A stretch of 62,999 nt of DNA from an uncultured Bacillales bacterium. Its GTDB lineage: Bacteria > Bacillota_I > Bacilli_A > RF39 > UBA660. The notes under the pieces were generated by a model that ran no database searches, was not told where the DNA came from, and worked only from the letters and a program-made list of their open reading frames with translations. Location of the stretch: assembly GCA_948433085.1 (NCBI GenBank), contig CAOJDP010000004.1:1-62999 (forward strand). Reading direction: 5' to 3'. The position numbers were made by a program, and so were the translations under genes. Positions 5,886 to 58,444 of this stretch are shown here, one piece after another. Every line of letters begins with the position of its first letter. Position 1 is the stretch's first letter.

Positions 5886-6948
5886 AAATAAACCAGATTT
5901 TAAACTCATCAATTGTGCACTTATCGTATTTATTGTATTTCTAGTATACCGTACAGGAAATTTATGGTTGGGATGTATGACAACATTAAAAAAAATTATG
6001 ATTCCATTCTTTTTGGCATTTATTGTTGCCTATGCATTATATCCATTTTTGCAATATTTAATGAAAAGAAAAATTCCAAAAGCAATTGCAGTAATTATTA
6101 TTATCGCAATGATTATAGGAATTGTTGCCTTTTTGGGAATTACAGTTGTTCCACTCTTGTTTGGACAATTATCCAGTTTATTTAATGGGATTATTTCATT
6201 TATTAAAGAAATTTCTATGAAATATGACATTAATTTTGGTCCAATACAAGATACTTTATCGAATAGTTTCAATGAAATTATCATGTCATTGGGTAAATAT
6301 GTATCCAATGGCGCAATTAATATGATTGGAATTTCAATGGAGTACCTCTCAATTGCTTTCATTGCTTTTGCAGCTTCAATTTATTTCTTAATTGATATGG
6401 ATAAAATACGATCTTCTGTAAAAAAATATTTAAGAAGAAGAAATAAAAAAGCATTTAAATATGTATCTGCAGTAGATTATGAAATGAAACAATATTTAAC
6501 AGGCTTTTTAAGGATTATGATAATTACATTAATTGAATATTCCGTTGCCTATACAATTATTGGACATCCAGATGCACTATTACTTGGTTTTTTAGCAATG
6601 GTTGCCAATCTAATTCCATACTTTGGTGGAATGATTGCCAATATTGTCGCGGCTGTGACTTCATTTGTTATTAGTCCAGCAATGTTTATTAAAACATTAA
6701 TTGTGTTTATGGTATTATCATGGTTAGATGGCTATTTAATTAACCCACTTGTTTATGGAAAAACAAATAAAATTCATCCATTAATAGGAATATTTGCTGT
6801 TTTTGCAGGTGGAATATTGTTTGGAGTAGTAGGGGTTATTATTTCACTTCCACTTGCAATTATCTTGATTACTACATATAAATTTTATTGGGAAACAATT
6901 AGTGATAAAATTGAAGATATGAAGGAAAGGTCTGAGAAAGATTCGTGA
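5878..6948 (+). CDS. AI-2E family (PerM/UPF0118) transporter
   Basis: 356-aa polytopic membrane protein. The C-terminal pattern (IPYFGG...PL..G) is typical of UPF0118. Confidence 0.78.
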   Translation: MIKNKPDFKLINCALIVFIVFLVYRTGNLWLGCMTTLKKIMIPFFLAFIVAYALYPFLQYLMKRKIPKAIAVIIIIAMIIGIVAFLGITVVPLLFGQLSSLFNGIISFIKEISMKYDINFGPIQDTLSNSFNEIIMSLGKYVSNGAINMIGISMEYLSIAFIAFAASIYFLIDMDKIRSSVKKYLRRRNKKAFKYVSAVDYEMKQYLTGFLRIMIITLIEYSVAYTIIGHPDALLLGFLAMVANLIPYFGGMIANIVAAVTSFVISPAMFIKTLIVFMVLSWLDGYLINPLVYGKTNKIHPLIGIFAVFAGGILFGVVGVIISLPLAIILITTYKFYWETISDKIEDMKERSEKDS

Positions 6949-18142: not shown

Positions 18143-18874
18143 ATGAATGTTCAAGAACTATACATTAATATGGATGATTCAGGGGTATTACATCAGAATG
18201 AATATTGTTCTATTTATGGAGGACTAATTTTTTTCAGTAAACAGCAGCAAGATGATTTTGGACGTAAATATAAATCTATACTCAATAAAATCAAATGTTG
18301 CTATTGTAAAAGCAATAAACTAAAGTGTTGCCATATCTGTCCTGAAATCAAAGATACTAACATCCATTCCAATCATAAAAGATGGTTATTTAATATGATT
18401 CAAAAAGAAATTTGCTTTGCAGTCGTCATCCATAATCAAAAAATAAAAAAGAGTATAATGGAGAATAAAAATGCGAGAGGGAGATATCGTGATTATGCAC
18501 AAAGACTTCTCATTAAAAGAGTTCTTGAATATTGTATTCAAAATCAATATATCAATCCTTTTTTACCCATTAAATTGATTATTCGTATTGATCAACAAGC
18601 CACCTCTACAGATACACATAGAGAGTTTATTTTTGATATTCAAAAAGAACTTACACAAGGTATGACTAACTTTGAATATCGTATGGTGCATAAACCTATT
18701 TTATATGCAAAGCTAGAAATTGATTTAAAATATGTATTATCGCATAGACACATATCCATTCAAGCATCTGACTTGATAGCAGGGGAAACAAGACATGTTA
18801 TTTTATCGAACATGGATTCTATTACTATGTTAAAAAAATTAGATTACTTGAATATTAAACTCTTTTTACCATAA
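18143..18874 (+). CDS. DUF3800 domain protein
   Basis: N-terminal INMDDSG (the DUF3800 D-E/D-S-G motif) and C-terminal IQASDLIAGE (the Q.aDl.ag motif). RBS GAGGTG. Confidence 0.6.
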   Translation: MNVQELYINMDDSGVLHQNEYCSIYGGLIFFSKQQQDDFGRKYKSILNKIKCCYCKSNKLKCCHICPEIKDTNIHSNHKRWLFNMIQKEICFAVVIHNQKIKKSIMENKNARGRYRDYAQRLLIKRVLEYCIQNQYINPFLPIKLIIRIDQQATSTDTHREFIFDIQKELTQGMTNFEYRMVHKPILYAKLEIDLKYVLSHRHISIQASDLIAGETRHVILSNMDSITMLKKLDYLNIKLFLP

Positions 18875-18977
18875 AAAAGCACTTCTGTAGAAGTGCCCAA
18901 ATAGGGTGTCGTATTTATAATACGATTAAACTCTCGTTCTATCCCTAAATGTAGACCTGACAAGATTTCTCTCCGGT
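18873..18977 (-). ncRNA. Candidate ~105-nt small RNA (unknown family)
   Basis: On the minus strand: TTGACA (19012-19007), a 17-nt spacer, then TATGAT (18989-18984). The transcript would contain a long interrupted hairpin and a CGTAT/ATACG hairpin. It would end at a GC-rich hairpin (GCACTTC-TACA-GAAGTGC) followed by TTTTTT on the minus strand only. There is no ORF. Confidence 0.35.
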
Positions 18978-19074
18978 AACTTTATCATAACATACTGAAT
19001 GCACACTGTCAATTTCTTTTTTGATGTAACGTTAAAAAATATGGTATACTGTTAAAAGAATAGAGGTGCGTTTT

Positions 19075-21402
19075 ATGATAGAACAAGTGATTCAAACCAA
19101 GTTTCAACAAATGTTAGAAAGTAATCATTATATTACGTATAAAGAATATAATAATTTTTTAACCAATTATAAAGAACATTTTGAAAATAGTAGTAGCAAT
19201 GAAGAAATAAAAGAAATTGCAAGTAATGGCTATATGAAAATAGAACAGCATAATGCCCAATTTATTGCCCAAAAATTAATAGAAGAAAAAGATTACTTTG
19301 ATCATATGTTTCAAAAACTAGATGTAACTATAGAACTGGATGAAGCGCAAAGAAAAGCAATTTTGAATGAAGATGATTATTCTTTAATTATCGCAGGTGC
19401 TGGGGCAGGAAAGACTACAACGATGGCTGCCAAAGTAAAATATTTAATTGAAAGAAAACAAGTAGACCCTGCAAAAATTGCAGTAATTTCTTATACCAAT
19501 CAAGCAACTGAAGAATTAAAAGACCGTATTCACTATGGTTTTGAAATTCCTGTAGATATTATGACCTTTCATTCACTTGGAATGAAAATGATTCGTAAAC
19601 TTTTTCGTAGCCCATTAAGGCCTATATCTGAAAAAGAACAAAAAGAAATTGTAATTACATATATTAAAGAAGTTCTATTCCCAAATAAAGAATTATTTGA
19701 AAAGTATATTTCAATGTTTAATAAATATGATGAATATGGATATAAAATGTTTTCAAAAGGATTTGTAGAAAATTATCGAAAATTTGAAACCTTTGACGAT
19801 TACTTTAGAGATTACAAAAGGAGAAAACAAGAACAAAACAAGGATAATCTAAAGCAAATTATAGATAATTATATGGAAGGATATCTAAAACAGCAAACAC
19901 CAAAATCCCTTAAAAACGAGACCATGCGTTCTAAAAGCGAAGCCAGAATAGCGAATTTTCTTTTCATCAATGGAATTGAATATCAGTATGAAGAGCCATA
20001 TCCAGAAAAAGTAGATGAAGGAAAATCTTATGCACCAGACTTTACTATTTTTGTAAATGATATTCCTTTATATATTGAATACTATGGATTGTCTAGTTAT
20101 TATACAGGAAATGGAATCCAGAAACAAACTGCAAAAAAATACGAAGATATTCGCACAAAGAAAAGAAACTTTCATAAGATTCATGAAAATTACTTTATTG
20201 AACTGGACTATAGAATGTATGAAGATGGAAAGCCAATTCATTATTTAAAAGCACTAAGACAAAAATTAAATGCATATAATGTTGTTTTTCAACCACGTAC
20301 TTTAGAGGAAATTTATGATCAAATTCTAAATAATAATGTAGTTGCTGAATTTTTTCATTTTGTTGATTTTATTGTGGATATCATAAATCAAATTAGAAGT
20401 AGTTCTAGTAGAGAAAACTTTTGGACGATTATTACAGATTATATTATGAAATTAGATGTTGATTGGGATACAAAAAAACAAAGGAATGAAGAAGCAAAAT
20501 TAATTCAAGAAATTTATCAATATTATGAAAAAGAGTTACTTCCAAATAATCAAATTGATTTTTCAGATATGATTTTTTATGCCAATAAATTTATGAAAAA
20601 TTTACATGTATTAGATTATGAATATTTGATTATCGATGAGTATCAGGATATTTCTGTTGATCGATATGAATTTGCACATAATCTATCACAACTTACTAAC
20701 GCCAAAGTGATTTCAGTAGGAGATGATTGGCAAACCATATTTTCTTTTGCAGGCTCTCGGATTGATTTATTTTTAAAATATAATTCTTCTTTTCCAGGAG
20801 CAAGACAGCTTTTTATAAATAATACTTATAGAAGTAGTCAAGAATTAATTGATTGCGCAGGAAACTTTATTATGCAAAATCCTATGCAAATGAAAAAGAG
20901 TCTATTTTCTAATAAAAGAAGAGAAAACCCTTTTAAACTATATATTTATAACCAAAATCAATATGAAATAGTAAATGAAATTGTAAAGCAAATTTATGAA
21001 AAAAACAAAGACGATCATATTTTAATCCTTGCTAGAAAAAACAAACATATTGAGAAATTATTAGAAACTTCATACTTTAAAGAGGGAATCGGTACAAGAA
21101 TTATTTCAGAAGCTTGCCCAAATGCGATTATAGATGCAATGTCTGTACATAAAGCAAAAGGCTTAGGTGCAGATCAAGTAATTCTGCTCAATGTAACAAA
21201 CAAGGATTTTCCTTGTCCTGAAAAAGAAGGAATATGGCTTTCTAATTTATTTAAGGAGGACCATTATAAAGAAGATTTTCCATATGCAGAAGATAGACGT
21301 ATTTTTTATGTAGCACTTACAAGGACAAAAAACGATGTTTATTTACTTGTGCCAGAGAGTAAATTAGACAGGTCTCCTTTTATAGAAGAAATATTGGAAT
21401 AG
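19075..21402 (+). CDS. Helicase IV-like SF1 (UvrD-family) helicase with an embedded PD-(D/E)xK-like nuclease module
   Basis: HelD-type N-terminus leading to Walker A AGAGAGKTTT, with motif II IIDEYQD and C-terminal motifs VHKAKGL and YVALTRTK. Between motifs Ia and II lies SKSEARIANFL...YAPDFTIF...LYIEYYG, which resembles a restriction-endonuclease-fold core. The ATG at 19075 follows AGAGGTG. Confidence 0.8.
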   Translation: MIEQVIQTKFQQMLESNHYITYKEYNNFLTNYKEHFENSSSNEEIKEIASNGYMKIEQHNAQFIAQKLIEEKDYFDHMFQKLDVTIELDEAQRKAILNEDDYSLIIAGAGAGKTTTMAAKVKYLIERKQVDPAKIAVISYTNQATEELKDRIHYGFEIPVDIMTFHSLGMKMIRKLFRSPLRPISEKEQKEIVITYIKEVLFPNKELFEKYISMFNKYDEYGYKMFSKGFVENYRKFETFDDYFRDYKRRKQEQNKDNLKQIIDNYMEGYLKQQTPKSLKNETMRSKSEARIANFLFINGIEYQYEEPYPEKVDEGKSYAPDFTIFVNDIPLYIEYYGLSSYYTGNGIQKQTAKKYEDIRTKKRNFHKIHENYFIELDYRMYEDGKPIHYLKALRQKLNAYNVVFQPRTLEEIYDQILNNNVVAEFFHFVDFIVDIINQIRSSSSRENFWTIITDYIMKLDVDWDTKKQRNEEAKLIQEIYQYYEKELLPNNQIDFSDMIFYANKFMKNLHVLDYEYLIIDEYQDISVDRYEFAHNLSQLTNAKVISVGDDWQTIFSFAGSRIDLFLKYNSSFPGARQLFINNTYRSSQELIDCAGNFIMQNPMQMKKSLFSNKRRENPFKLYIYNQNQYEIVNEIVKQIYEKNKDDHILILARKNKHIEKLLETSYFKEGIGTRIISEACPNAIIDAMSVHKAKGLGADQVILLNVTNKDFPCPEKEGIWLSNLFKEDHYKEDFPYAEDRRIFYVALTRTKNDVYLLVPESKLDRSPFIEEILE

Positions 21403-28800: not shown

Positions 28801-28828
28801 TTGACATAAAAATTATAGATGATAAAAT
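28801..28828 (+). promoter_or_regulatory. Sigma-A-type promoter upstream of leader copy A
   Basis: TTGACA, 16-nt spacer, TAAAT-type -10 (TAAAAT). Confidence 0.5.
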
Positions 28829-28877
28829 GAATATAGATAGAACTATCTGTATTCTAAAATAGCAGGAAAGTACAAAA

Positions 28878-28953
28878 AAATCATAAAATAGTTTGCAAAA
28901 AGAACAAATGAAATTTGCTAATTGCAAACGGGGGGGGGGTATACCCTCTTTTT
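28878..28953 (+). promoter_or_regulatory. Conserved leader element, copy A (25-nt box + GCAAA/TTTGC/GCAAA segments + G10 terminator-like hairpin)
   Basis: AAATCATAAAATAGTTTGCAAAAAG matches 57170-57194 at 24 of 25 positions. It ends with GCAAAC-G10-TATA-CCCTC-TTTTT, about 90 nt upstream of the pilin/RCC1 gene. Confidence 0.5.
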
Positions 28954-29045
28954 AGTGATTGGAAAGGAAGTGAAAAAGTGGTACACTGATAATATACTAA
29001 GAATAGAAAATAAAATTTAGTACAAACTAAAGTAGGAGGAGTTAT

Positions 29046-30521
29046 ATGAAAAGAAAAGGATTTACATTAATAGAATTGTTGGCAGTCATTGTGATACTAG
29101 CAATTATAGCATTAATTGCAACCCCAATGATATTAAATGTCGTAGAAAAAGCAAGAATAGGAGCAGTGAAAGAAAGTGGACACGGGTATGTAGAAGCGGT
29201 AGAAAAGTACCAACTAGAAGGGCAACTAGATAGTAGTATGTATCAAATACCTAAGAACACAGTTATAAAAATAAATGCATGTGAAACAACATGTTTAAGA
29301 GACTTAATAGAAGTCAAAGGAGAAAAACCAAATGGGAGTAATGACTATATTAAATTAGATACAAAGGGTATTATAGAAGAAGGAAAACTCACCTTCCAAG
29401 GATATGAAGTGACAATTAAAAATGGAAAAATAGAGAGCGTTACAAAAGTTAATCAAACACAAGAAGAAAGTCCAATAGAAGTGGTAGAGCCCTCTTTAGG
29501 AGTAGGTGTTTCCAATTTTGTAATTGATGAGGAGGGAAATCTTTGGTATATAGATGTATTAGTGGATAAAACAATTAGTAGAAAAAAAATAAAAACAGAT
29601 ACTAAGTTTAGATATTTAGATGTTAATTATCATTACCTTGGTACTGCCATTGATACAAAAGGAAATTTATTACTACTTGATAATATATATGATGCTGTTT
29701 ACGATTCTGCTCTTACAGAAATACAAGTTTTAGAGGGAGTTAAGTCTGTTACAAGTGATAGAAAGGGTAATATATATGCAATTGATAATAAGAACGATTT
29801 ATGGAAAATGAATATAAATGATAGTGAAATTGAAGAAAATGAGGGAAATATTATTAACTACAATTTCCTGAAAATGCCAATTAAGGAAGGAACAAAGTTT
29901 AAAAGTATCATAAGTGCTGATGAATCTAATTATGTAATGACTATTGATATGGATGGAAATTTGTGGGCTTGGGGAGACAATTCGTTTGGTCAATTAGGCG
30001 ATGGAACACAAGAGGATAAAACTGAACCAGTTCAGATTAAAGAAGGAACGAAATTTGTAAGTGTATCACTAGGGTTTGCGCATACAATGGCTATCGATGT
30101 GGAAGGAAATTTGTGGGCTTGGGGATACAATTCGTTTGGTCAATTAGGCGATGGAACACAAGAGGATAAAACTGAACCAGTTCAGATTAAAGAAGGAACA
30201 AAATTTAAAAGTATAGCTGCAGGAAATAATTATTCCGTTGCAATCGATGAAGAAGGGAATTTGTGGACATGGGGAAACAATTATAGAGGTCAATTAGGGG
30301 ATGGAACAGCAGAGAGAAAATTGATACCCATTCAAATTATAGAAGGAACAAAATTTCAAAGTGTATCAACAGATGGTTTGGAAGAACATGATATATATAC
30401 AACTGCTATAGATGAGGATTGGAATCTTTGGATATGGGGATATAGTAGAAAGTATGGTAGTGATTCAAGTATAATTCCAATTACACAAGAACCAGTTATT
30501 GCTATGCAGTTAAAAAAGTAA
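29046..30521 (+). CDS. Prepilin-type N-terminal cleavage/methylation domain protein fused to an RCC1-repeat beta-propeller
   Basis: N-terminus MKRKG|FTLIELLAVIVILAIIALIATP is a type IV pilin class III signal with Glu at +5. The C-terminal half has repeated GNLWAWG(D/Y)NSFGQLGDGT...P units (RCC1 signature). Confidence 0.8.
   Translation: MKRKGFTLIELLAVIVILAIIALIATPMILNVVEKARIGAVKESGHGYVEAVEKYQLEGQLDSSMYQIPKNTVIKINACETTCLRDLIEVKGEKPNGSNDYIKLDTKGIIEEGKLTFQGYEVTIKNGKIESVTKVNQTQEESPIEVVEPSLGVGVSNFVIDEEGNLWYIDVLVDKTISRKKIKTDTKFRYLDVNYHYLGTAIDTKGNLLLLDNIYDAVYDSALTEIQVLEGVKSVTSDRKGNIYAIDNKNDLWKMNINDSEIEENEGNIINYNFLKMPIKEGTKFKSIISADESNYVMTIDMDGNLWAWGDNSFGQLGDGTQEDKTEPVQIKEGTKFVSVSLGFAHTMAIDVEGNLWAWGYNSFGQLGDGTQEDKTEPVQIKEGTKFKSIAAGNNYSVAIDEEGNLWTWGNNYRGQLGDGTAERKLIPIQIIEGTKFQSVSTDGLEEHDIYTTAIDEDWNLWIWGYSRKYGSDSSIIPITQEPVIAMQLKK
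29955..30203 (+). repeat. Near-identical 150-bp-period direct repeat inside the RCC1 region
   Basis: 29955-30053 and 30105-30203 are almost identical at the nucleotide level (GGAAATTTGTGGGCTTGGGGA.ACAATTCGTTTGGTCAATTAGGCGATGGAACACAAGAGGATAAAACTGAACCAGTTCAGATTAAAGAAGGAAC). Confidence 0.85.
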
Positions 30522-56325: not shown

Positions 56326-57051
56326 TTAAAAGGTATGATTTTTATTTTTAATAAACTCTCTTAACATTTTGGTCAAAGCTCTTTTTTCAATTCGTGATAC
56401 ATAGCTTCTTGATATATCCATTTCTTCTGCAATTTCTTTTTGCGTTACTTCTTTTGTATTATTTAAACCATATCGTTTTGTAATGATTTCTTTTTCTCTT
56501 TCCGTTAAAACATTGAAATATTCTTTTAATAGACCAATATTATTTTGATTGTGAATATCTAATGCGAAATCAGGTTTTGGTGTTTTTAGAATGTCTAAAA
56601 ATGAAATTTCATTTCCATCTTTGTCAAAACCAACAGGTTCATTTAAACTGATATTCTTGCTGTTTTTTTTGTCACTTCTAAAATACATTAAAATTTCATT
56701 TTCAATACAACGAGCACAGTAAGTAGTAATACGGGTTCCATGCTTATAAGAAAAACTATCAACTCCTTTAATTAAACCAATGGTCCCAATACTAATCAAA
56801 TCATCAGCATCCTCTTTTCTGTGTTCATACTTTTTGACAATATGAGCAACTAGTCTCAAATTATGTTCAATTAACATATTTCTCGCATATTCATCGCCGT
56901 TTTGTGCAAGTTCTACATATTTTTCCTCTTCTTCTTTGGAAAGAGGTTCTGGAAATAATTGATTGGAATAAGCGGCTGTAAAGATGGTAAGATCTTTAAA
57001 CAAATAACGAATTAAACGCAACAACACATAACTCACATCCTTCATAATCAA
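56326..57051 (-). CDS. sigK: Sporulation sigma factor SigK (pro-sigma-K), uninterrupted
   Basis: FPEPLSKEEEEKYVELAQNGDEYARNMLIEHNLRLVAHIVKKYE...ISIGTIGLIKG...CIENEILM...ISRSYVSRIEKRAL is nearly collinear with B. subtilis SigK. A ~20-aa hydrophobic pro-sequence precedes AAYSNQ. The true start may be the GTG at 57027. Confidence 0.85.
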   Translation of the reverse strand: MIMKDVSYVLLRLIRYLFKDLTIFTAAYSNQLFPEPLSKEEEEKYVELAQNGDEYARNMLIEHNLRLVAHIVKKYEHRKEDADDLISIGTIGLIKGVDSFSYKHGTRITTYCARCIENEILMYFRSDKKNSKNISLNEPVGFDKDGNEISFLDILKTPKPDFALDIHNQNNIGLLKEYFNVLTEREKEIITKRYGLNNTKEVTQKEIAEEMDISRSYVSRIEKRALTKMLREFIKNKNHTF

Positions 57052-57113: not shown

Positions 57114-57141
57114 TTGACAAATCCAAAAAACATGATATACT
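57114..57141 (+). promoter_or_regulatory. Sigma-A-type promoter upstream of leader copy B
   Basis: TTGACA, 16-nt spacer, TATACT. Confidence 0.5.
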
Positions 57142-57169
57142 AAGACGCATTCAAGCAAATAAAAAGGGA

Positions 57170-57253
57170 AAATCATAAAATGGTTTGCAAAAAGCTAACG
57201 GAAACATAAATCAAACATTTAGCATATAGCAAAAGGGGGGATCCCCTTTTTTT
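57170..57253 (+). promoter_or_regulatory. Conserved leader element, copy B (25-nt box + hairpin + terminator-like AAAAGGGG..CCCCTTTT)
   Basis: AAATCATAAAATGGTTTGCAAAAAG (24 of 25 identical to copy A), a GCTAA...TTAGC hairpin, then GCAAAAGGGGGGATCCCCTTTTTTT immediately before the downstream gene. Confidence 0.5.
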
Positions 57254-57277: not shown

Positions 57278-58444
57278 ATGTCAATTAATACCAAAGCAGA
57301 CTTCGATGCAATTATCGAAAGAATCAAAAAACTAGTCGAAAATTATGAAAATAATGTAAATCATTATAACCAATATCAATTTTATATAGCAAATGGGGAC
57401 CGAATTTCTTTTGAAATTACACCACAATCAATCGCCCATTTACTTGGAATACGTTTAGATTTTCTTCGTGCAACAGGACTATTTAAAAATCAAAATAGTT
57501 ATAATTTACTAAAGGAATTTTTGGATAATTCTTATTCTGTCTATAGACAAGTGCAAGAAGGTCATTTAGCATATTCTACTATGTTTTCGGAATACTTAGA
57601 AGAAAAATTAGAAGCATTTGAGAAAATTATCTATTATTTCAATCCAATTGATATTGAATTTGTTTATAAATATGATAAAAGCAAAAGTTATCAATCAGGA
57701 GAGGAAGAAAATTATCCATGTGACTATTTCTTAGCTAGAAAATCAAAAAATGGTGATATGTATTTACTAGGATTAGTAAAACAAGGAAATCAATACAATC
57801 CAATGACTAACATTACCCTTGTAAAAGATGAAACACAAATATCAAAATTAAAACATTTACTTGTCAATCAAACATTAACATATGTAAATTCTATGCTAAT
57901 AGAAAATCCAATGACAAATTATAGGAACAATCCTCATATGATGATTACATTAAAATTAGAACAAACAAAAAAATTGAAAAGATATGCTGGATATACAAGT
58001 GGAGTTTCCATTGATACTTCAGCGGATTTTCAATATGCATTGAATGGATATCTATTAAAAGATAATAGAATAAATACTTACAAAGTCATGTGTCAACAAT
58101 TATTAAAGGCAATCAAAGAACATGAAATATTTGATATTGAACAAGTAGAAGAATCCATTAGAGAACAATTTGATGATAAAATGATTCATTTAATCCAAAC
58201 CTACAATGATACATTATACAAAGATAGTACCAATCTATCTGCACAAACTTCTTATACCAATTTATTAGAACAGTATAAGATACTTGCAATTCAAGTAGAG
58301 CAATTAAAAGAAAAGCTACACCAGTCAGAACAAGAAGTAATCGGTTATCAAGCACATATACAAACTTTACAAGCACAAGATGAATCCTATCAGTTATTTC
58401 AACAACAAATATTTGAAGTTGTCGAGAAACAAAAACAAAAGTAA
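57278..58444 (+). CDS. Hypothetical protein with a C-terminal Gln-rich coiled coil
   Basis: ~388 aa. The ATG at 57278 follows AAAGGA; the track start at 57260 lies inside the leader's T-run. No recognised domain. Confidence 0.6.
   Translation: MSINTKADFDAIIERIKKLVENYENNVNHYNQYQFYIANGDRISFEITPQSIAHLLGIRLDFLRATGLFKNQNSYNLLKEFLDNSYSVYRQVQEGHLAYSTMFSEYLEEKLEAFEKIIYYFNPIDIEFVYKYDKSKSYQSGEEENYPCDYFLARKSKNGDMYLLGLVKQGNQYNPMTNITLVKDETQISKLKHLLVNQTLTYVNSMLIENPMTNYRNNPHMMITLKLEQTKKLKRYAGYTSGVSIDTSADFQYALNGYLLKDNRINTYKVMCQQLLKAIKEHEIFDIEQVEESIREQFDDKMIHLIQTYNDTLYKDSTNLSAQTSYTNLLEQYKILAIQVEQLKEKLHQSEQEVIGYQAHIQTLQAQDESYQLFQQQIFEVVEKQKQK

Follow-up and report, generated by a model that had tools for sequence, protein, structure and literature searches.

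A question raised by this locus is whether two leader RNAs that share a sequence box form a sensor of some ligand, as a sequence-only reading had supposed, or whether they regulate their genes in another way. Both lie within the window, by which we mean the whole stretch of 62,999 nucleotides that was analysed. There are exactly two occurrences of the 25-nt box, AAATCATAAAAT(A/G)GTTTGCAAAAAG, in the window (28878–28902 and 57170–57194), on the + strand each time; no third copy was found in the window at up to three mismatches, and none in 100 shuffles. The distance from promoter to box is ~50 nt in both copies, and each promoter matches 11 of 12 positions of a sigma-70-type consensus with a TG extension. 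A terminator-like site follows 30–40 nt 3′ of the box and, according to a terminator scan, is the sole one in each neighbourhood, against 0.1 expected. Chance is ruled out as the source of both leader copies (Table 1). The promoters, hairpins and G-run/C-run/T-run terminators that had been reported around the two boxes are all present as described, including the GCTAA/TTAGC hairpin of copy B, and so are the + strand genes downstream: one for a protein with a prepilin signal and RCC1 repeats, the other (57278–58444) for a protein that profile searches left without an annotation.

Table 1. Features of the two leader copies, in window coordinates
Copy	Feature	Position	Strand	Description
A	Promoter	28801–28828	+	TTGACA-16-TG-extended TAAAAT; 11/12 consensus; predicted transcription start near 28835
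A	Conserved box AAAUCAUAAAAUA	28878–28890	+	Unpaired in all lowest-energy folds; core AAUCAUAAWAUR invariant between species
A	Hairpin P1	28891–28929	+	Base GUUUGCAA (28891–28898) : UUGCAAAC (28922–28929), 8 nt, 100% complementary; inner stem CAAAU/AUUUG
A	G10 homopolymer	28930–28939	+	Terminator 5′ arm; putative hypermutable tract; only G/C run of at least 7 in the window
A	Rest of terminator	28940–28953	+	Loop UAUA, 3′ arm CCCUC, U5 tract; from terminator scan (28930–28949 plus T run) and folds
A	Post-terminator segment	28954–28972	+	AGUGAUU (complementary to box core), then GGAAAGGAAGUG
A	Downstream gene	29046–30521	+	Prepilin-type N-terminal methylation signal and RCC1 repeats; PF07963, PF00415/PF13540, TIGR02532
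B	Promoter	57114–57141	+	TTGACA-16-TG-extended TATACT; 11/12; predicted start near 57148; layout conserved in orthologues
B	Purine tract AAAAAGGG	57161–57168	+	5′ of box; complementary to CCCUUUUU in terminator 3′ arm
B	Conserved box AAAUCAUAAAAUG	57170–57182	+	Single-stranded
B	Hairpin P1	57183–57233	+	Base GUUUGC (57183–57188) : GCAAA (57229–57233); inner GCUAA (57194–57198) : UUAGC (57219–57223)
B	Terminator	57231–57253	+	AAAAGGGGGG, AU, CCCC, U7; scan hit 57231–57250 plus T run
B	Downstream gene	57278–58444	+	388-aa orphan protein

We assembled 26 homologues of the 388-aa protein encoded downstream of copy B (45–69% identity) and examined the DNA around nine of them. The whole arrangement recurs upstream of orthologues with 55–69% protein identity (L017/18, L019, L021/22 and L028–32) and in part in L033 and L034. 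Its parts keep a fixed order, in which a promoter (AAAATTTGACAA-N-TGATATAAT), a purine tract, AATCATAATATAGTTTG, 15–25 variable bases and TTTGCTATNTGYAAAC are followed by the G run, a loop of 3–5 nt, CCC(C)TC, T6–8, ATGGTT and a ribosome-binding site. The purine tract reads AAAAAGGG, AAAGAGG or AAAAAGG in the orthologues. At this level of protein divergence neutral intergenic DNA would be scrambled, so the conservation of the leader is meaningful. The anatomy and its conservation were observed directly, and the leader is a real RNA element, conserved between species. The earlier reading had staked its proposal on conservation in related genomes, and it stands in that respect; as for the conserved unit, AATCATAAWATRGTTTG is kept in other species and the 3′ part of the 25-nt box, CAAAAAG, is not.

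We built a covariance model from six leaders and searched it against 188 kb comprising the window and related loci. Orthologous leaders scored 96–103 bits and the two window copies 90 and 65, whereas the next-best match reached 20. A covariance search of this kind had been suggested as a check; it retrieved the orthologous leaders and no further copies in the window and related loci. A dispersed repeat is ruled out by the same search. The element is therefore the leader of one gene family, with one extra copy in this genome. Scans for the exact box in genome and metagenome collections returned chance matches only, in coding regions or an unrelated promoter. A scan of viral contigs for the core of the box gave 74 matches, none with a downstream G run, and a protein-based viral scan found no relatives. 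The supposition that the leaders belong to no known RNA class held up: neither copy matches Rfam 15 at the gathering score, and permissive scans with both copies and two orthologous leaders gave only far sub-threshold similarity to small RNAs (sRNAs) that consist of a hairpin plus a terminator. The Rfam 15 matches in the window are one DUF3800-I RNA and one tRNA, both away from the leaders. A scan of copy A found no tandem repeats within the leader of the kind sought for a type III toxin–antitoxin system.

Copy A is closer to the orthologous leaders (73–78% identity) than to copy B (69%), and it keeps the GGAAAGGAAGTG ribosome-binding stretch of the family 3′ of its terminator. This likeness suggests that copy A is the canonical version of the leader, transplanted to a second gene. 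In L017, the ribosome-binding region of the 388-aa gene has a stretch that matches the GGAAAGGAAGUG segment of copy A, and this segment would thus be a relic of the origin of the element.

In every species the lowest-energy fold leaves the box unpaired and forms a single extended hairpin with the terminator immediately next to it (z-scores, −2 to −4). The base of the hairpin, GUUUGCA:UGCAAAC, comprises 34 Watson–Crick, 6 G-U and 0 A-C pairs across the leaders, and the presence of G-U but not A-C pairs points to selection on the sense RNA and not on the DNA or the antisense strand. The top of the hairpin is species-specific in sequence and keeps its pairing. Overall, 94% of cells are paired, compared with 59–72% when the partners are slid. 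Compensatory covariation was not significant and did not exceed that of shuffles, since there is almost no variation in the paired columns; the predicted structure is plausible, and compensatory change does not prove it. The terminator is recognizable by the usual features, a G+C-rich stem-loop on the sense strand directly 5′ of a U tract, and is conserved in the orthologues. We also noted a variant of the leader in front of the pilin protein of the window in another sample (L007, 1789–1863), in which GTTTGAAAAAAC replaces GTTTGCAAAAAG. Both of its substitutions are uncompensated and weaken the hairpin, which counts against the structural model; the contig has low coverage, and the change is either a real strain variant or an error.

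These features make it very improbable that the leader is a metabolite- or second-messenger riboswitch. A conserved leader with a terminator as its expression platform and no match to a known family is what such an RNA would look like from a distance. However, the leader consists of only one hairpin, variable at its top, and a short box that stays unpaired, in place of the conserved junction or pocket of an aptamer; it has no multi-helix core and no significant covariation. The alternative pairing of the central TTTGC on which the sequence-only reading had built its switching logic does exist in copy A, as GTTTGCAA/TTGCAAAC, but is not conserved elsewhere. The genes downstream of the leaders, those of an orphan family and one for a pilin-like protein, show no connection with metabolism, transport or c-di-GMP. 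The ligand-sensing part of the earlier proposal is thus not borne out.

What had been taken for an ordinary stem in the terminator is a homopolymer. The terminator itself is present as claimed, but its 5′ arm is a run of 9–12 G residues in most species; in the orthologues it measures 9–11 nt, with G8 and G12 variants implied by gene calls. No G/C run of 6 nt or more exists in the 63-kb window (29% GC) outside the two leader tracts, and copy A has a G10 where 0.001 runs of at least 10 would be expected. The tract is also polymorphic: its lengths are G10/9/10/9/9 in L028–L032, G9/G10 in L017/L018 and G10/10/10/9 in L035–L038. In three of the six strain groups, independent assemblies are one G apart, with 0–1 mismatches over 500 nt of flanking sequence; these length differences could partly be homopolymer sequencing or assembly error. 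Also counting against variability, the species of the window has G10 in all three available assemblies. The tract has both marks of a simple-sequence repeat, being a homopolymer beyond the expectation from composition and varying in length among near-identical strains. L020, L026, L033 and L034 begin at or just after the G run; such breaks suggest that assemblers fail at the tract, as would fit length heterogeneity or difficult sequencing. In L026 the sequence at the tract is garbled and G/C-rich.

Copy B departs from this pattern. Its arm, AAAAGGGGGG, is still 10 nt long, with six G residues remaining and four replaced by A, so that A-U pairs take the place of G-U pairs. That these swaps occur at equal arm length is evidence that the entire purine run pairs with the U tract. 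On this sequence, the tract of copy B should be far less mutable, a ‘locked’ form. A separate G10 run was seen in L023 and L024 (18401–18410), ~87 codons into a 1,979-aa open reading frame (ORF) that adjoins a WXG100-like gene; this ORF of a related genome is probably a phase-variable gene of the frameshift type.

More distant orthologues of the 388-aa protein (47–54% identity) have no leader. Instead, the G tract lies in the promoter, as TTGACA-N5–8-G9–10-N0–1-TATAAT, directly 5′ of the ribosome-binding site, and tract polymorphism was seen in these promoters too. Homopolymeric tracts in promoter spacers are a classic form of slipped-strand phase variation (reviewed in PMC1891110 and PMC5084427), and the polymorphic spacers of these orthologues are of that form. 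By its layout, theirs is a textbook phase-variable promoter, and it is clear for these orthologues that placement of the tract would affect expression. In the window and nearer relatives, by contrast, the tract lies in the transcribed leader, 3′ of an intact TTGACA-17-TATAAT promoter. The flanks of the tract are alike in both architectures (leader, TTGCAAAC-G10-TATAC; promoter, TTGACAAAC-G10-TAT or ...G10-TATAATAC), which suggests that one evolved from the other. Every relative examined has either this leader or a poly-G promoter, and the family is, to judge from these upstream regions, a genuine orphan family under poly-G control.

We considered whether the leader tract might itself be the spacer of an internal promoter. 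No sigma-A-type −10 element lies at a usable distance from it, as TAATAC and TATACC lack the T at −7, and so do the other candidate hexamers, AAATAC, GATACC and ATATCC. The conserved TATGGT after the T run would have only G residues at its −35 position. Matches to the consensus sequences of sigma-B, sigma-E and sigma-K promoters are poor, and an internal promoter was rejected.

The homopolymer in the leader, together with the poly-G promoter spacers in the same gene family, shifts the likely logic of the element from ligand sensing to phase variation, and the element most likely works at random and heritably, as a dimmer or an on/off switch, and not by sensing a metabolite. Our best explanation, to which we give about even weight, is a transcription attenuator with a hypermutable repeat as the arm of its terminator, producing random heritable variation of downstream expression and taking the box as a second input. 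A strong constitutive sigma-A-type promoter would make a 5′ leader RNA of ~105–125 nt, in which the single-stranded box AAUCAUAAWAUR precedes the hairpin and the abutting terminator. As the 5′ arm of the terminator, the 9–12-nt G run would be matched by CCCUC and also by the U tract, the latter in G-U pairs. Since the downstream gene is without a promoter of its own, the majority of transcripts should end at this predicted terminator. The G run would gain or lose units through replication slippage, and the terminators passed on would thus differ slightly between lineages. The contingency gene downstream would then vary in expression, stochastically and reversibly, either on/off or in graded steps. 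The canonical G10 version would have been copied in front of the pilin-like RCC1 surface protein, with a non-mutable version kept at the original site. The polymorphic tracts were observed directly, as were the poly-G promoters in distant orthologues; termination itself and any dependence of expression on tract length are inferred. In RNAfold, each added G contributes ~0.5 kcal/mol and leaves one free U fewer, a smooth change with no switch. A change of one G may do little to termination, the arm being already longer than the C run.

More tentatively, we consider a broader form of this explanation, a ‘slippery terminator’, which seems to us possible but short of probable. It holds that an intrinsic terminator in a conserved leader RNA has the mutable homopolymer itself as one arm, that slippage directly retunes attenuation, and that the gene family has swapped between this leader device and a poly-G promoter spacer. 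The module would be transplantable to other genes, here to the pilin-like RCC1 gene, and the box would form a second, factor-dependent layer.

The slippage model leaves the role of the invariant box unaccounted for. Box and hairpin probably provide a second, physiological input through a candidate RNA or protein partner, and this input is probably separate and factor-dependent because copy B keeps both although its G run has decayed to AAAAGGGGGG. The same observation can be taken further: the leader could be a factor-dependent attenuator only, in which an antiterminator protein or an sRNA acts in trans by binding box and hairpin, the G run is a mere stem and its variability is incidental. The factor might even be the 388-aa protein acting on its own leader, as BglG-type antiterminators do on theirs. 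An invariant single-stranded sequence of 12 nt suits a sequence-specific binder; the leader always accompanies the 388-aa gene and its sole other copy precedes a second gene in the same genome, which has the look of a small regulon; and the box of copy B has outlasted its G run. The box is, moreover, complementary over 8–11 bp to UUAUGGUU just 3′ of the terminator, and the helix between them appears in the lowest-energy fold of the read-through RNA of four species. This duplex is marginal: its stability was equalled or exceeded by 1–16% of shuffles for five leaders and by 51% for copy B. Nor can it form before transcription has moved beyond the terminator, so it comes too late to influence termination. 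No conserved competitor (antiterminator) for the G arm was found in the folds of the leaders; the purine tract is complementary to the 3′ arm of the terminator and was judged kinetically unable to compete. A purely factor-dependent attenuator also gives no account of a 9–12-nt homopolymer that is kept in divergent species and recurs in the promoter spacers of distant ones, and the 388-aa protein has no recognizable RNA-binding or other domain. We therefore regard this alternative as unlikely.

Another arrangement to be weighed is that of a stand-alone gene for an sRNA, or of two sibling sRNAs, in which the 5′ box would be a seed for trans targets and read-through secondary. A strong consensus promoter, a length of ~105–125 nt, a single-stranded 5′ segment, a hairpin and a terminator are typical sRNA anatomy, and the box is nearly identical in the two copies of one genome. 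The element is, however, always on the same strand as, and directly 5′ of, the same gene family. The terminator lies 10–25 nt from the ribosome-binding site in copy B and all orthologues, with no + strand promoter-like site between them; the 90-nt gap between terminator and gene in copy A holds a weak 9/12 promoter-like site. As no promoter intervenes, the gene must be expressed by read-through, and the element must at least also act in cis. Complementarity to a target was not identified for the box. An independent sRNA is accordingly a quite improbable reading, and the original description of a cis-acting 5′ leader with a terminator is supported by its position and its conservation in front of orthologues.

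Gene callers extend several homologues in frame through the leader, which bears on an attenuator that works through ribosomes. The extended forms of the 388-aa protein (P0148, P0153, P0018, P0025, P0027 and P0161; for example, MLFVNGGGGKYPLFYGWDKGVTSM-) read through the hairpin, the G run (as poly-Gly), the C arm and the T run, and they reveal leader-type elements in the most distant homologues (45–51% identity), with tract lengths of G12 and of G8 with T6. A short upstream ORF could thus run from the hairpin through the G run, and the length of the tract would set its frame; the frame would in turn decide whether translation proceeds through the terminator and melts it, or how ribosomes interfere at the main start codon. 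There is a precedent in a pilus operon, pil1 (PMC3894217). In L028 an AUG is preceded by an AGTAGG Shine–Dalgarno-like sequence, and G9 would lead to a stop right after the tract whereas G10 would carry the ribosome past the terminator; L019, L021 and L028 have a common frame, (A/U)UG CUA UUU GYA AAC GGG. Yet no start codon or Shine–Dalgarno sequence is conserved, L017 has a UAG at the equivalent position, no ORF of copy B crosses the tract, and in most species no stop codon is met before the end of the terminator in any of the three frames. Substitutions fall at the first and second positions of the putative codons and not at the third, which fits the hairpin better than coding. When we varied the tract over G(n±2) in six leaders, only L028 behaved as expected, and leader-peptide frameshifting was rejected as a general mechanism; overall, we consider this reading improbable.

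The preferred explanation, a mutable terminator arm, has partial precedents. In pil1 of Streptococcus gallolyticus, slippage of a GCAGA pentanucleotide repeat in a leader-peptide ORF 5′ of a terminator leads to heterogeneous expression through terminator read-through, an effect mediated by ribosomes (PMC3894217). That system, from a Gram-positive gut bacterium, likewise combines a constitutive promoter, a repeat-bearing leader and a premature stem-loop terminator before a gene for a surface appendage (PMC3894217); in our element the repeat is a mononucleotide G run that forms the 5′ arm of the terminator, and no leader ORF is conserved. In cwpV of Clostridioides difficile, a recombinase inverts a 195-bp segment by site-specific recombination, and phase variation depends on whether the leader between promoter and ORF forms an intrinsic terminator (PMC2784873); the present element would share that logic with a slippage-prone repeat in place of segment inversion. 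The uspA1 gene of Moraxella catarrhalis resembles it in having a length-variable G tract upstream of the ORF: a G8–12 tract outside the coding region grades the level of mRNA, with a 21-fold difference between G10 and G12 in one strain by a mechanism not resolved there, and even a single G can make a difference (PMC7302503). Unlike our element, uspA1 is in a Gram-negative host and was described with neither a terminator nor a conserved leader RNA.

A variable G repeat in an mRNA leader is also paired with a C/U-rich RNA segment in tlpB of Helicobacter pylori, where the partner is reportedly the loop of a trans-acting sRNA and control is said to be post-transcriptional, at translation. Here, the C/U-rich partner lies in cis, in the terminator hairpin with its U tract. 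The variable leader G-repeat of tlpB pairs with such a segment of the RepG sRNA, and repeat length tunes expression gradually (PMC8295292). Phase variation through a leader terminator is thus already known, and the element would be a variant of phase-variable attenuation. Our literature search found no case of a mutable homopolymer as the arm of a terminator within a conserved leader RNA, and this feature sets the element apart from pil1, cwpV, RepG/tlpB, uspA1 and poly-G promoter spacers.

Searches for phase variation usually turn to promoter spacers and coding frames. A mutable terminator stem, if real, would give them a further kind of site, one that couples attenuation at the RNA level directly to heritable, stochastic switching. 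The results also suggest that uncultured AT-rich gut Bacilli (Mycoplasmatota-like lineages of metagenome-assembled genomes) use poly-G contingency loci. Relatives of the HisS protein encoded in the window that have names, at ~71% identity, carry the labels Tenericutes/Mycoplasmatota or Bacilli and come from metagenome-assembled genomes. The 388-aa family and the pilin-like RCC1 protein would be marked as functions that need switching, plausibly in surface, phage or host interaction. The leader offers a compact, well-delimited RNA motif that is new to Rfam, with an invariant 12-nt box that is experimentally tractable.

The 388-aa protein has no sequence-profile match in Pfam, NCBIfam, PADLOC, PHROG or the PDB, and a Foldseek search of the PDB with its confident AlphaFold2 model (pLDDT 84) returned only coiled-coil noise. 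Many residues are invariant in the family, among them HLLGI, YxVY and a C..Y.F patch, and the C terminus forms a long coiled coil. The genes of the family have conserved downstream neighbours, for PadR and a HAAS-domain protein. Divergent from copy B is a gene for a SigK-type sporulation sigma factor (56326–57051, − strand; TIGR02846, 305 bits), a neighbour found also in L017 and replaced by a LytTR response regulator in L021. The only tandem array that we found lies outside the element, at 29037–29075, where two copies of a 20-nt unit, AGGAGTTACATGAAAAGAAA (78% matches), cover the ribosome-binding site and the start of the pilin/RCC1 gene. A full-length DUF3800-I RNA (RF02969; 60.7 bits, gathering score 44.2) lies on the − strand at 18868–18984, between the + strand ORFs at 18143–18874 and 19066–21402 and with no − strand ORF of at least 80 aa nearby. 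In relatives, genes for DUF3800 proteins occur near the 388-aa gene, from 20690 in L021 and at 6718–7395 in L029.
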